DNA from: a virus
Lineage: Duplodnaviria > Heunggongvirae > Uroviricota > Caudoviricetes
Virus record (IMG/VR): IMGVR_UViG_2917408641_000004
Length of the DNA stretch: 44,025 nt
Direction: 5' to 3' (one strand)
Shown here: piece after piece, positions 8,180 through 14,875 of the stretch
Numbering within the stretch: the stretch's first letter is position 1
Layout of the letters: each line of letters opens with the position of its first letter
Notes under the pieces: generated by a model
The model's input: the letters and a program-made list of their open reading frames with translations, nothing else
Told to the model about the DNA's origin: nothing
The model's database searches: none
Translations under genes and position numbers: made by a program

Positions 8180-8602
8180 GTGGCAAAAGTTTTTACACAA
8201 GAAGAGCGGGAAAAAATTAAAGGGCAGGTGGTGGAACTCGTGCGCCAGAGCGGTCGTGAGACGTTACGGCAACTGGAAGCTAAAACAGGTGCGACTAGAT
8301 ATCTGATGAGCGTTCTTGCCAGAGAGCTGGTAGCCAGTGGCGATGTATACAACTCCGGCTACGGGTTATTCCCGTCTGAACAGGCGCGTAAGGACTGGCA
8401 AAACGCCCGCAAAAAACTCTCGAGGGCAAAGGTGAAGAAACCTGCTGTGGTTGATCCGGACCTTATCTGGTCATTACCTGACGGAGAAATACGCCGCTAC
8501 GACAGTCGTCTAAACATAATCTGTCGCGAGTGCCGGAAGAGCGAAGTTATGCAGCGTGTTCTGACGTTTTATCAGGGGAATTATCGGGAGGTGATGCTGT
8601 GA
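8180..8602 (+). CDS. Hypothetical phage protein
   Basis: 140 aa; GTG start preceded by strong SD AAGGGGG. Confidence 0.5.
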   Translation: MAKVFTQEEREKIKGQVVELVRQSGRETLRQLEAKTGATRYLMSVLARELVASGDVYNSGYGLFPSEQARKDWQNARKKLSRAKVKKPAVVDPDLIWSLPDGEIRRYDSRLNIICRECRKSEVMQRVLTFYQGNYREVML

Positions 8603-8832
8603 GTACATCGGCTACCATTCTCGACATGTGCTGTGGCAGTCGCATGCTCTGGTTCGATAAGAATGACGAATGGTCGATATTTAGCGATATCAGGAAAGAG
8701 GAACATTCGCTATGTGATGGACGTCACCCGATTATTAATCCCGACATTATCGCTGATTTTCGTGCGCTGCCGTGGTTGTCTGCTTTGCATCAAAAGCAGA
8801 CATTACCAGATTTAGACATCTGTTTCCGATAG
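8600..8832 (+). CDS. Small ORF with SAM-methyltransferase motif I-like segment (possible gene fragment)
   Basis: About 77 aa from GTG 8600 (SD GGAGG upstream); segment [13 protein letters not shown] resembles MTase motif I but the protein is far too short to be a complete methyltransferase. Confidence 0.3.
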
Positions 8833-8864
8833 CCCGTTCTGATGCTACACTTTTTGCTATTTTC

Positions 8865-9551
8865 ATGAACCTCATAAACACATTTATGACTGTTGCTGAT
8901 TTCAAACGCCCCAAATTGGAGCTCCCAAACGGGGCAAAAAAACTATTACTGCACTCTTGCTGTGCTCCATGTTCCGGTGAAGTGATGGAGGCGCTTCAGG
9001 CCTCGGGAATCGACTACACCATCTTTTTCTACAACCCGAACATTCATCCTCAGAAAGAGTATTTAATTCGTAAGGATGAGAATATTCGCTTTGCTAAACA
9101 ACACGGCGTGCCATTTATTGATGCTGATTACGACACAGACAACTGGTTTGAGCGAGCCAAAGGAATGGAATGGGAGCCTGAACGAGGGATCCGTTGTACC
9201 ATGTGTTTTGACATGCGTTTTGAGCGGACTGCACTGTATGCCGCTGAAAATGGTTTCAGTGTGATCAGTAGCTCACTGGGCATTTCACGCTGGAAAAATA
9301 TGCAGCAGGTTAACGACTGTGGACGGCGAGCCGTCGCGCATTATCCGGGCATGGTGTACTGGGATTATAACTGGCGAAAACAGGGCGGCTCTTCCCGCAT
9401 GATTGAAATCAGCAAGCGCGAACAATTCTATCAGCAGGAATATTGTGGCTGCGTGTATTCACTGCGCGATACCAATCTACACCGCAAATCTCAGGGACGC
9501 CCTCTAATCAAAATTGGTCAACTGCACTACGGTAAAGAAGGACAGGAATGA
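8865..9551 (+). CDS. queH: Epoxyqueuosine reductase QueH family protein (DUF208)
   Basis: Cysteine motifs [19 protein letters not shown] and QEYCGCVYS characteristic of QueH; ATG at 8865 chosen because the upstream in-frame extension from 8772 is non-conserved. Confidence 0.75.
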
Positions 9552-9631
9552 TTTTATATTATGCCAACGGAGCGTAGCAGTGTTTCTATATATAGTACGC
9601 CTACCTTAATTTTCAAATAATCATGATTAAT

Positions 9632-9672
9632 GAGCAGGTCATCAGTGCAAGCAATGACCTGCTCATCTTGTT
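9632..9672 (+). terminator. Rho-independent terminator after queH
   Basis: Perfect 11-bp inverted repeat GAGCAGGTCAT / ATGACCTGCTC (9632-9642 and 9654-9664) with 11-nt loop, followed by a T-containing tract. Confidence 0.55.
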
Positions 9673-10163
9673 GAAATTAGAGGAAATCTTGCAGCCATGA
9701 TATGGCTTAAAATAACGTTTGATTATTTTACCTGCTGTTTGTCCCTGGTTTAAAGTCGGTTGTCTGATTTGATTACGCGCAACTGACGCTTACGTATTGA
9801 AGTAACGAGCACGAAGACACATATTTATCAGTGCCTGTATACGTCAAGAGCAGGAGATTTATGTGCTGGTTCTCAAATGCACGCTGGCTATTGTGGCTGT
9901 AATGGCAATTTATTGTCTTGTTATTGTTCTTATGGATCACCTTTCTGATTGATTTCATATTGGCGAGGTAACGGTAGTTAAGTAGAATGGCTGCGGGTGC
10001 TTGAGGCTATCTGCCTCGGGCATGAACACCAACGGCAGATAGAGAAAAGCCCCAGTTAACATTACGCGTCCTGCAAGACGCTTAACATTAATCTGAGGCC
10101 AATTTCATGCTAGACACATGTAGGTTAGCCTCTTACGTGCCGAAAGGCAAGGAGAAGCAGGCT

Positions 10164-10319
10164 ATGAAGCAGCAAAAGGCGATGTTAATCGCCCTGATCG
10201 TCATCTGTTTAACCGTCATAGTGACGGCACTGGTAACGAGGAAAGACCTCTGCGAGGTACGAATCCGAACCGGCCAGACGGAGGTCGCTGTCTTCACAGC
10301 TTACGAACCTGAGGAGTAA
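10164..10319 (+). CDS. hokD: Hok/Gef family type I toxin (HokD/RelF-like)
   Basis: 51-aa product MKQQKAMLIALIVICLTVIVTALVTRKDLCEVRIRTGQTEVAVFTAYEPEE: single TM helix plus conserved Hok C-terminus; SD AAGGAG upstream; 3' hairpins and terminator downstream as in hok mRNAs. Confidence 0.85.
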   Translation: MKQQKAMLIALIVICLTVIVTALVTRKDLCEVRIRTGQTEVAVFTAYEPEE

Positions 10320-10388
10320 GAGACCCGGCGAGGGAGAAATCCCTCGCCACCTCTGATGTGGCAGGCATCCTCAACGCACCCGCACTTA

Positions 10389-10415
10389 ACCCGCTTCGGC
10401 GGGTTTTTGTTTTTA
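10389..10415 (+). terminator. Rho-independent terminator of hok transcript
   Basis: ACCCGC-TTCG-GCGGGT hairpin followed by TTTTTGTTTTT; a second hairpin CGAGGGA-GAAA-TCCCTCG lies at about 10329-10346. Confidence 0.7.
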
Positions 10416-10772: not shown

Positions 10773-11121
10773 CCGGCTCATTTAAACCGTCTGGTCTGTT
10801 TCCTCCGGCTCTACAAAAATAATGTCCATCATTTTTAATGGACACTATCGTATGAAACACCGGACCTGGATCACTGAAGCTTTACGTCTTCACTTTGAAG
10901 AACATTTACCCCGGGTTGTGGCCGGGCGTCGCCTGGGTGTACCAAAATCAACAGTTTGTAGTATGTTCGTGCGCTTTCGGAGAGCTGGCCTTTCGTGGCC
11001 TTTGCCCGCAGGCATGTCGGAGCAGGAACTTGATGCCTGCCTTTACGGACAATTTTCCACGGTACCAGTCGTACGTCCTGAAAGCACCGTTATATCCGAA
11101 GCCCCCGTGGTAAAAAAACGT

Positions 11122-11133
11122 CCCCGGCGGCCC
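11122..11133. repeat. 12-bp target-site duplication of IS4 (left copy; right copy 12560-12571)
   Basis: CCCCGGCGGCCC present immediately outside both IS4 ends. Confidence 0.85.
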
Positions 11134-12559
11134 TAATGCCAGTCAGTTAAGCAACTGACTGGCTCTTTTTCGGGGCTGTGGGGTATTTCCAGGGCCTCTC
11201 CTTTACCACTCTCGGGAAGGCCCTTTCCCTTCTTGTCGGTAATTTCACAAGTTGTCCCATACTTGCAAGATCGCGCATCAGCTCCGGTATACGTCCCGGT
11301 GAAGCGCCCTGCAATGTCATCAGCATTCTCATCACCATTCCGCATGATTCTGAGAAACTCAGTTGATTCGGCCAGTAACCTTTCAGATGTTCTGCCATTT
11401 TAATCATCTGATATCTCACCAGATTATAAGCCAGTAAGACACCCCACAGCTCTTGCTCCACAAGCTCCGGCTTTTTACTTCTCAGCGTCAGCCTGCTCAG
11501 TTGCATCGTCTGTTTTATCTCCCTGTATCCCAGTTCGATTTCCCAGCGATGACTGTACAGATCCGCCATTTCTCCTCCGGGGAAGCGCATGGCGTCCGTC
11601 ATCGACGTCAGCAGATGGCAGACTTTTCCTTTGCGCGTCACGGTCAGCAGGCGGGCTGTCACCTCATTTCCCAGCCCCGGCCACTTTTTTCGTGCCTGCG
11701 GGCTGGTTTTCAGCTTCACCAGATGATCGCCTTTACCCAGTTTTCTGATCTCTTCATATTGCGCTCCCTTTCTGAGAGGGATCATCCAGTGGCGGTGTTC
11801 TCCCGCCTGGCTCCAGGCATTTAACAGTCCCAGTGAGTAATAACCTTTATCCATTAACGTCAGGGTGTTATCGCCGGTTTGTTCTATAAGTTGCTCAGCA
11901 AGCTCATTTTCGCTGTTCTTCATCGTGCCGAAGGCTGCAGCCGTCAGCAGATGGCTGGTCAGTTCCATCTGGCAGACCATTTTGACCTGCGGGTAGAGCG
12001 CCGGGTTCCCGGCATGTGTCTGGCGGGGGAAGGCTGCATCGTTCTCTGGTGTATCCGGTGTGCGCCAGAACACACCATCGATGGCCAGCAGGGTCAGGCC
12101 GCACCAGTGCGGATGCGGCGTGGCGTTATGCCAGAGCTGCGCTGTTTTCGTGAACACGCGGCGGACAGCCTCACTTCCCAGACGCTGGCGGGCCTGAATA
12201 ACGGCACTGGGGGCAACGAAGGGGCGATTGCCCGGCAGCATGATGTCCAGGCGATTCACAATCTGGTGAAGAGGTTCTTTACGCTCAAGCGCCATGCCAA
12301 CAATACACCAGACCATCATTTCGAGGGGAAGACGGCGCTTGCGTAGCGTTACAGTACCTGATTCGGCAAGGCAACGAGAGATGAGTTCGGGGTCGAGGTA
12401 ATCCCCCAGAGAAGTCAGTGGGTTACGCAGAGAATCGTAACGGGATACCAAATCAAGGGCCTGTCCAATGAGCATAAAAAAATCCGGAAACGAGTGAGCG
12501 TTTCCGGATTCTTACACAGCCACTGGATCGGTCAACTGATCCTTAACTGATCGGCATTA
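11134..12559 (-). mobile_element. IS4, complete copy
   Basis: 1426 bp, matching the known IS4 length; terminal inverted repeats TAATGCC(A/G)..TCAGTTAAG; single 442-aa transposase; 12-bp TSD within the expected 11-13 bp range. Confidence 0.9.
11147..12475 (-). CDS. insG: IS4 transposase
   Basis: 442-aa ORF filling the IS4 element; IS4-family DDE transposase. Confidence 0.9.
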
Positions 12560-12571: not shown

Positions 12572-12936
12572 AACTTCCCTTATGAGTTTAAAATCGCCTT
12601 AGTGGAGCAGTCACTGCAGCCCGGAGCCTGTGTGGCGCAGATCGCCCGGGAAAACGGAATCAACGATAACCTGCTCTTCAACTGGCGCCATCAATACCGG
12701 AAAGGTGGCCTGCTGCCTTCCGGAAAAAATATGCCGGCACTGCTTCCCGTGACGTTAACGCCGGAGCCGGATAATAAAATCCCGGCCCCCGCACAGGAAC
12801 CAGAGCAGATAAATACACCGTCCGACAGTCTGTGTTGTGAGCTGGTTCTGCCGGCCGGAACTCTCAGGCTTAAAGGTAAACTGACGCCGGCGTTATTACA
12901 GACACTTATCCGCGAAATAAAAGGGAGCAGCCACTG

Positions 12937-13284
12937 ATGATATCTCTCCCTGCCGGTTCGCGTATCTGGCTGGTTGCAGGTATCACCGATATGCGAAATG
13001 GCTTTAACGGCCTGGCATCAAAAGTTCAGAACGTCCTGAAGGATGACCCGTTCTCCGGACACCTGTTCATCTTCCGCGGACGCCGGGGTGACCAGATAAA
13101 AGTGTTGTGGGCTGACAGTGACGGACTGTGCCTCTTCACCAAACGCCTGGAGCGGGGCCGCTTCGTCTGGCCAGTCACCCGTGACGGCAAGGTGCACCTT
13201 ACTCCGGCTCAGTTATCCATGCTTCCTGAAGGTATCAACTGGAAGCACCCGAAACGAACGGAACGCGCTGGAATCCGCATATAA
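12937..13284 (+). CDS. tnpB: IS66-family TnpB (Orf2)
   Basis: 115 aa; start overlaps tnpA stop (ATGA); typical IS66 Orf2 sequence (..IWLVAGITDMRNGFNGLA..). Confidence 0.85.
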   Translation: MISLPAGSRIWLVAGITDMRNGFNGLASKVQNVLKDDPFSGHLFIFRGRRGDQIKVLWADSDGLCLFTKRLERGRFVWPVTRDGKVHLTPAQLSMLPEGINWKHPKRTERAGIRI

Positions 13285-13303
13285 CCCGTTGTAAAGTGAG
13301 GAT

Positions 13304-14875
13304 ATGGACACCTCACTTGCTCATGAGAACGCCCGCCTGCGGGCACTGTTGCAGACGCAACAGGACACCATCCGCCAGATGGCTGAATACAACCGCCTGC
13401 TCTCACAGCGGGTGGCGGCTTATGCTTCCGAAATCAACCGGCTGAAGGCGCTGGTTGCGAAACTGCAACGTATGCAGTTCGGTAAAAGCTCAGAAAAACT
13501 TCGTGCAAAAACCGAACGGCAGATACAGGAAGCTCAGGAGCGAATCAGCGCACTTCAGGAAGAAATGGCGGAAACGCTGGGTGAGCAATATGACCCGGTA
13601 CTGCCATCCGCCCTGCGCCAGTCTTCAGCCCGTAAACCGTTACCGGCCTCACTTCCCCGTGAAACCCGGGTTATCCGGCCGGAAGAGGAATGCTGTCCTG
13701 CCTGTGGTGGTGAACTCAGTTCTCTGGGATGTGATGTGTCAGAGCAACTGGAGCTTATCAGCAGCGCCTTTAAGGTTATCGAAACACAACGTCCGAAACT
13801 GGCCTGTTGCCGGTGCGACCATATCGTGCAGGCACCAGTACCTTCAAAACCCATTGCACGCAGTTATGCCGGAGCGGGGCTTCTGGCCCATGTTGTCACC
13901 GGGAAATATGCAGACCATCTGCCGTTATACCGCCAGTCAGAAATATACCGTCGTCAGGGAGTGGAGCTGAGCCGTGCCACACTGGGGCGCTGGACCGGTG
14001 CCGTTGCTGAACTGCTGGAGCCGCTGTATGACGTCCTGCGCCAGTATGTGCTGATGCCCGGTAAAGTCCATGCCGATGATATCCCCGTCCCGGTCCAGGA
14101 GCCGGGCAGCGGTAAAACCCGGACAGCCCGGCTGTGGGTCTACGTCCGTGATGACCGCAACGCCGGTTCACAGATGCCCCCGGCGGTCTGGTTCGCGTAC
14201 AGTCCGGACCGGAAAGGTATCCATCCACAAAATCACCTGGCCGGTTACAGCGGTGTGCTTCAGGCCGATGCTTACGGTGGTTACCGGGCGTTATACGAAT
14301 CCGGCAGAATAACGGAAGCCGCGTGTATGGCTCATGCCCGGAGAAAAATCCACGATGTGCATGCAAGAGCGCCCACCGACATCACCACGGAAGCCCTGCA
14401 GCGTATCGGTGAACTGTATGCTATCGAGGCAGAGGTCCGGGGCTGTTCAGCAGAACAGCGTCTGGCGGCAAGAAAAGCCAGAGCCGCGCCACTGATGCAG
14501 TCACTGTATGACTGGATACAGCAACAGATGAAAACACTGTCGCGTCACTCAGATACGGCAAAAGCGTTCGCATACCTGCTGAAACAGTGGGATGCACTGA
14601 ACGTGTACTGCAGTAATGGCTGGGTGGAAATCGACAACAACATCGCAGAGAACGCCTTACGGGGAGTGGCCGTAGGCCGGAAAAACTGGATGTTCGCGGG
14701 TTCCGACAGCGGTGGTGAACATGCGGCGGTGTTGTACTCGCTGATCGGCACATGCCGTCTGAACAATGTGGAGCCAGAAAAGTGGCTGCGTTACGTCATT
14801 GAACATATCCAGGACTGGCCGGCAAACCGGGTACGCGATCTGTTGCCCTGGAAAGTTGATCTGAGCTCTCAGTAA
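13304..14875 (+). CDS. tnpC: IS66-family transposase TnpC
   Basis: 523 aa; N-terminal coiled-coil/leucine zipper, CxxC..CxxC zinc motif (CPACGG..CCRCDH) and DDE-type C-terminal region characteristic of IS66 transposases. Confidence 0.85.

Follow-up and report, generated by a model that had tools for sequence, protein, structure and literature searches.

A constrained queH gene carried as cargo by Qin-like lambdoid prophages of Escherichia coli

The virus record IMGVR_UViG_2917408641_000004 (the window, meaning here the whole stretch of 44,025 nt that was analysed) is a complete Qin-like lambdoid prophage. At 8886-9551 it encodes a bona fide member of the QueH family, carried as prophage cargo. 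In prophages, this gene is under strong purifying selection. We put at roughly 0.7 the probability that queH is a self-promoted moron, which would give lysogens a conversion of epoxyqueuosine (oQ) to queuosine (Q) independent of cobalamin (vitamin B12). An effect on the queuosine of host tRNA would be, from the sequence, the most plausible reading of the gene.

Identity of the gene and selection on it

The original prediction named the product as a QueH (DUF208) homolog on a phage, with its cysteine motifs. Both points stand. The 221-aa product gave a full-length match to the Pfam profile PF02677 (QueH, formerly DUF208), at E=2.7e-65 and 220.2 bits, over profile positions 1-174 of 175. The curated cut-off of this profile is 23.5 bits. 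In a phmmer search against the Protein Data Bank (PDB), the product matched the QueH of Thermotoga maritima (7lc5) at E=6e-22. The NCBIfam profiles gave no match to prophage QueH at E<=0.01, so its identity is settled by Pfam and the PDB.

We aligned the prophage protein with 75 representatives of the family, taken from clusters at 50% identity. All conserved cysteines are present. In the numbering of the 221-aa protein, every family-conserved position is kept: C25-C26-A-P-C29, R103-C104-x-x-C107, R111, K137, and C187-G-C189. The motifs CCAPC, RCxxC, and CGC align to QueH from T. maritima and are invariant among close orthologs. T. maritima differs in the first of them, where it has CCAPD instead of CCAPC. 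However, CCAPC is the majority form in the family alignment (65 of 68), and T. maritima is the exception.

The AlphaFold2 (AF2) model was made from 24 homologs and is of moderate confidence (pLDDT 72, pTM 0.73). It matches 7lc5 with a TM of 0.77, and its best five PDB structures are all QueH of T. maritima, with TM values of 0.75-0.78 normalised to the target. Like the known QueH (T. maritima 7lc5, 7lc7, and 9deu), the prophage protein has the full domain, the fold, the Cys motifs, and the conserved Arg, Glu, and Lys positions. In contrast to the known QueH, it is encoded on a temperate phage or prophage whose host possesses QueG already, and its activity is predicted. With the housekeeping QueH of Enterobacterales it is 80-92% identical.

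Selection was examined on viral copies from IMG/VR. Full-length and intact queH is found in 79 of 80 of them. The 22 DNA alleles encode 6 protein sequences. Compared with the window allele, dS (synonymous divergence) reaches 0.33 and dN (non-synonymous divergence) is about 0.013, with dN/dS values of 0.04-0.05. This divergence most likely arose inside prophages, since the 5' region and the right-hand junction are common to the alleles.

The gene is common. Among 5426 complete E. coli genomes, 995 (~18%) have a queH open reading frame (ORF), essentially full length in 985. Identity is at least 99% in 72 of these matches, 95-99% in 74, and 90-95% in 849. The E. coli matches listed all bear the annotation QueH, and O104:H4 is among them, as are one isolate each of O25b:H4-ST131 and O157:H7. 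On the other side of the comparison, queG is present in 5426 of 5426 genomes, so wherever QueH occurs in them it adds to a non-homologous enzyme for this step. In IMG/VR, QueH relatives at 97-100% amino-acid identity are encoded on 189 viral contigs. The same prophage cassette is also found in E. albertii.

In E. coli B REL606, the locus corresponds at 99.5% identity to the Qin prophage, which lies beside rspAB/ynfA. RefSeq already annotates its gene as 'epoxyqueuosine reductase QueH' (WP_021568046.1). This Qin is defective, with a frameshifted integrase and disrupted late genes; its queH is still intact. The isolated phage HannyBb also carries queH, labelled hypothetical. The prophage QueH matched PHROG 3217 ('unknown function') at E=5e-136. 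The present assignment fills this annotation gap, since PHROG 3217 and the hypothetical protein of HannyBb are QueH. In the collection of complete E. coli genomes, coverage of the first 25 kb of the window does not exceed 78%, at ~97.5% identity. The particular mosaic of prophage modules in the window is unrepresented in that collection. In the lack of a full-length genome match, REL606, O104:H4, MS 85-1, and HannyBb were taken as annotated proxies.

Limits, origin, and 5' region of the cassette

We compared 80 viral loci from IMG/VR with the window. They fall into three cassette classes. The window type, present in 14 of the 80 loci and in about 72 complete E. coli genomes, has a methylase remnant on the left and a hairpin-bearing spacer on the right. 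The two commoner classes have only 8771-9557 or 8816-9557 in common with the window, and the boundary at 8771 is common to two of the three classes. In all the loci of the commoner classes (66/66), the cassette end, 6 nt past the stop codon, joins the hok/sok region at the window-equivalent position 9930. O104:H4 shows the order DUF977, queH, hokD, without the methylase fragment. The methylase fragment and the hairpin are thus accidents of one recombinant variant, outside the conserved unit.

The class of IMG/VR loci that shares only 8816-9557 with the window (L024-L039) has a GC-rich hairpin of different origin, CCGCCCGAAAGGGCGGGG, about 75-95 nt upstream of queH. This suggests that recombination produced a third, independent junction on the left.

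The slot between DUF977 and hok/sok (8602-9995) is variable. Elsewhere in E. coli it is occupied by a dCTP-deaminase-type system, by NsnABC (E. coli W), or by KwaA/KwaB; the stretches compared were L004 1485-3123, L005 10-3213, and L091 5875-7514. In MS 85-1 a Kiwa system (KwaA/KwaB) lies between queH and hokD. In K-12 Qin, relBE occupies the equivalent slot. A search of PADLOC-DB v2 gave no match for QueH or the DUF977 protein, whereas other slot occupants match KwaA/KwaB, dCTPase, and NsnABC. In Qin-like prophages, this slot is a hotspot of variable cargo and of defence systems. It lies between the replication genes and the antiterminator Q, in agreement with the nin-like position assigned to queH from the sequence alone.

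The arrangement of a moron was also predicted, with the gene followed by its own strong terminator and preceded by a fragment of a methylase. This picture holds in part. Among prophages that are otherwise collinear, queH is present or absent at a fixed position: 995 of 5426 genomes have it in the slot, and the others have different cargo there or an empty slot. Together with a conserved promoter-like element, this fits a moron. On the other hand, the hairpin and the methylase fragment occur in only ~72 of the 995 queH-positive genomes. The known lambdoid morons (lom and bor of lambda, relBE in K-12 Qin) resemble queH as discrete units, present or absent, with a place in the nin-like region; the promoter-like element of queH would be a further resemblance. 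In contrast, the cargo is here a housekeeping enzyme of tRNA modification, and not a function of virulence, exclusion, or toxin-antitoxin type. A candidate for a dedicated terminator accompanies queH only in the minority variant.

As for this terminator, a stable hairpin does exist in the spacer. However, its tail reads CUUGUUG in place of a clean U-run, it was not called in the scan for terminators, and the commonest cassette form lacks it. The spacer itself is composite. Its part 9558-9819 is found only with the window variant, and 9820-9929 is also seen upstream of hok in queH-negative genomes. A promoter-like site on the minus strand (9754-9725) was discarded, being no more than chance expectation.

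The methylase fragment was rightly recognised as a remnant. The 77-aa ORF starts with a GTG that overlaps the stop codon of DUF977 (GTGA). It matches PHROG families of DNA methyltransferases (phrog_11564 at E=3e-28 and phrog_954 at E=1e-24), over profile positions 50-108 of 229 only. A Pfam search of this ORF gave no match. It aligns to the PhiR42_1 phage methylase as far as about 8766, just past DIIADFRAL and before VLDPPH. By the PHROG profile and this alignment, a complete methyltransferase catalytic domain with a DPPY/H-type motif is not present. Likewise, in REL606 the Prokaryotic Genome Annotation Pipeline (PGAP) treats the same stretch as a methyltransferase pseudogene without its C-terminus. 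The major cassette variant does not have the fragment.

The closest QueH proteins outside phages are chromosomal, in Scandinavium (92% amino-acid identity), Kluyvera (90%), and Enterobacter (89-90%). The next ones, at 80-87%, belong to Erwinia, Gibbsiella, Providencia, Proteus, and Photorhabdus. These chromosomal relatives stand in ordinary metabolic, non-phage neighbourhoods, for example purL-queH-glrK in Erwinia. Because the nearest relatives are chromosomal and in such neighbourhoods, the prophage gene appears to be a recently captured housekeeping queH from within Enterobacterales. A search for the donor by DNA found homology to chromosomal orthologs limited to the ORF and a few upstream bases, and no immediate donor.

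A mechanical ORF spans 8772-9551 (+) from a GTG at 8772. The true coding sequence (CDS) begins at the ATG 8886, which is also the start chosen by PGAP in REL606. The Erwinia ortholog, likewise of 221 aa and with 100% coverage, agrees with this start. The DNA similarity of the window to chromosomal queH orthologs starts at 8874-8884. The ATG at 8865, used in the HannyBb record, was rejected. Its seven additional codons are not conserved as protein, and the variants differ there by non-synonymous changes. One variant also has an additional C (+1, a frameshift) between 8865 and 8886. In that record (PP925841.1, 33011-33697), queH is listed as a hypothetical protein with its start 21 nt too far upstream.

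We found 12 distinct left contexts of queH. They have in common only about 70 nt before the ATG (8816-8885), and ATGCTACACT is invariant there. Within these 70 nt, TGCTACACT agrees with the extended -10 consensus TGnTAnnnT. The same 9-mer is present 31 nt before the chromosomal queH of Erwinia, amid otherwise non-aligning sequence. At the equivalent position in another chromosomal locus (L009) stands TGCTAAAAT. Since TGCTACACT is invariant in the 12 contexts and recurs before the Erwinia gene, a native promoter with a short leader of ~28 nt may have been captured along with queH. An Rfam scan of the queH leader and of the downstream spacer detected neither a riboswitch nor any other RNA. A 9-bp inverted repeat at ~8783-8806 was considered as an upstream terminator and rejected, because the major variant has only a degraded form of it and the variant of the 8816 class lacks it.

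Possible roles of prophage queH

We propose the following mechanism. The gene would have been taken from an Enterobacterales chromosome with its own 5' region of about 70 nt. In Qin-like lambdoid prophages it would now be a moron, in the slot that DUF977 and hok/sok delimit. With a [4Fe-4S] cluster and an adjacent iron, QueH would reduce the epoxide of oQ34 to Q on tRNA-Asp, tRNA-Asn, tRNA-His, and tRNA-Tyr, without cobalamin. For the final step of Q synthesis, the lysogen would have an additional route that needs no B12. Maturation of its Q-tRNA would be freed from cobalamin supply and uptake.

QueG of E. coli (b4166) has the same predicted reaction, from oQ to Q in tRNA, and both enzymes are encoded in 995 genomes. 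Since QueG needs cobalamin and E. coli has no de novo synthesis of it, the lysogen would complete Q synthesis whatever the B12 supply. The two enzymes have unrelated folds and cofactors. QueG is a class-III cobalamin enzyme (PMC7585037) that uses B12 and two [4Fe-4S] clusters, whereas QueH has no cobalamin requirement (PMC9508795, PMC7585037). PMC10639084 cites Frey et al. 1988, whose title speaks for the B12 dependence of the host step. The chemistry of prophage QueH is predicted because of its homology, to PDB entries and through the family description cited in PMC9508795.

Several points weigh against this proposal of a moron useful to lysogens. We infer that the enzyme is active in E. coli, that the extended -10 element drives its expression in the lysogen, and that the lysogen benefits when B12 is limiting. 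The benefit to the lysogen is hypothetical, because a functional difference between oQ and Q in E. coli is not established. A scan for two-hexamer σ70 promoters called none on the + strand upstream of queH, and the queH leader is without a Shine-Dalgarno sequence. Part of the synonymous divergence could predate the capture, if variants were captured independently. Finally, queH is co-oriented with the early-right operon, which is compatible with expression in the lytic cycle only.

QueH might then be an auxiliary gene of the lytic cycle, transcribed mainly from pR. It would complete the Q of host tRNA for phage mRNAs rich in NAU/NAC codons, and any benefit to lysogens would be incidental. The gene lies on the same strand and within the early-right/nin unit (cro, O-like, DUF977, queH, hok, ydfU, Q), and it is present in HannyBb, a viable phage. 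At queH, the promoter scan called no strong canonical site. Likewise, no terminator separates queH from hok in the major variant. Nevertheless, we consider this role unlikely. The ~70-nt 5' region with its invariant extended -10, common to the chromosomal ortholog, argues for independent transcription. The gene is also intact in defective prophages such as the Qin of REL606. Moreover, turnover of the tRNA pool is, as generally known, slow compared with a lytic cycle of about 1 h.

BtuB is a receptor for colicins and some phages, too. QueH could act in conflicts between phages or with colicins, through an oQ/Q state of the anticodon that shields tRNA from anticodon nucleases or makes it more sensitive to them, or by dispensing with BtuB and B12 uptake. 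The slot is a defence hotspot, and queH stands beside Kiwa in MS 85-1. The title of a 2026 preprint ties queuosine to phage resistance in Shewanella. However, no PADLOC model is matched by QueH, and the protein has ~90% identity to housekeeping orthologs, with no added domain. There is also no partner gene consistently linked to queH. We find a role in conflict, to which only the context of the gene points, very unlikely.

A weaker candidate still is a decaying hitchhiker without current function. The gene does adjoin a methylase pseudogene and insertion sequence (IS) elements, in a mosaic region. In contrast, 79 of 80 copies are intact, the dN/dS stays at 0.04-0.05 with dS up to 0.33, and all the catalytic motifs are kept, which makes decay highly improbable.

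QueA makes the oQ epoxide, the substrate of this step, on tRNA, and we know of no oQ in DNA. A part in a nucleic acid modification pathway, which the original prediction had allowed for, is scarcely credible as 7-deazaguanine modification of phage DNA: phages are known to carry queuosine-pathway genes for this purpose (PMC6884629, PMC10516641), but it needs a DpdA/TGT-like (tRNA-guanine transglycosylase-like) enzyme and preQ0 genes, and none was found in the annotation of REL606 Qin or HannyBb, nor among the window ORFs scanned (the large ORFs; not every small ORF was scanned). The known clusters (DpdA with FolE, QueD, QueE, and QueC) likewise borrow queuosine-pathway enzymes, whereas QueH acts at the last, tRNA-bound step.

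Returning to the moron in lysogens, a broader consequence may be drawn, which we regard as speculative and improbable. Selection on QueH, in a host with QueG, would mean that the step from oQ to Q is relevant to fitness and that cobalamin is often limiting for it in the niches of E. coli. The prophage would uncouple Q-tRNA from B12 and BtuB, and lower the cost of losing the receptor. If true, this indirect effect would accord with the location of queH in a defence hotspot.

The family, the reaction, and the RefSeq annotation are known already. The QueH family was identified by Zallot et al. 2017, as cited in PMC9508795. In the library searched, we found no paper linking QueH/DUF208 with prophages, BL21, or REL606. 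What appears undiscussed is a queH on a temperate phage, common in E. coli including the B laboratory lineage, and always duplicating QueG under strong constraint. It is neither a new enzyme family nor a new mechanism. Nevertheless, two non-homologous epoxyqueuosine reductases are encoded in about 18% of complete E. coli genomes, including those of the laboratory B lineage (REL606 and relatives) and O104:H4, ST131, and O157:H7 isolates. This is relevant to work in non-K-12 strains on Q and oQ, queG mutants, and the B12 dependence of tRNA modification. A strongly constrained gene on a mobile element also offers a natural experiment on the function of oQ versus Q.

The surrounding prophage

The coordinates of the cassette and its flanks are given in Table 1. 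The left part of the prophage has, in order, the integrase and exonuclease; the repressor/Cro, YdaT-like, and O-like genes; DUF977; the methylase remnant; and queH. After queH follow hok/sok and rem; the IS4 and IS66 insertions, DUF968, and the antiterminator Q; and the lysis, terminase, head, and tail genes.

Table 1. Positions in the window of queH, its 5' region, and the neighbouring features
Feature	Position	Strand	Basis or remark
queH CDS, predicted cobalamin-independent epoxyqueuosine reductase	8886..9551	+	221 aa plus stop; PF02677, PDB, motifs, model
Minimal 5' region accompanying queH (putative promoter and ~28-nt leader)	8816..8885	+	kept in all contexts
Extended -10-like element TGCTACACT	8843..8851	+	34 nt before ATG; invariant in 12/12 upstream variants; function putative
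Phage DNA methyltransferase remnant, 77 aa	8599..8832	+	homologous part 8599-8766; last ~21 codons are unrelated read-through
Left flank, DUF977/Ren-like gene, constant left border of the slot	8180..8602	+	PF06163 E=5e-29; phrog_142
Variant-specific spacer from queH to the hok/sok region	9558..9929 (372 bp)	.	comparison of loci
13-bp inverted repeat, terminator-like hairpin with weak U tail	9631..9667	+	~-21 kcal/mol, z=-3.4
Right flank, hok/sok type I toxin-antitoxin, conserved right border	9995..10319	+	sok RF01794 115 bits at 9995-10169

The DUF977 neighbour is also present in REL606, O104:H4, MS 85-1, and E. albertii. The phrog_142 family matched by its protein is described as 'Ren-like exclusion protein', and several phage records name the DUF977 protein LygF. 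On the right side, the hok/sok locus is apparently intact. Its mok/hok ORF (10107-10319, 70 aa) matches PF01848 (Hok/Gef) at E=3e-23. An isrK-like Rfam match at 10328-10409 is below threshold, with 25.7 bits against a gathering score of 50. A canonical terminator follows hok/sok at 10388-10405.

Between rem and the DUF968 gene, two insertion sequences stand side by side. The first (11147-12475, minus strand) is an IS4-family transposase with Nterm_IS4 and DDE_Tnp_1 domains; the second (12602-14875, plus strand) is a three-gene element of the IS66 family. Just before this pair, an ORF of 104 aa (10822-11136), without a Pfam match, may be a truncated gene.

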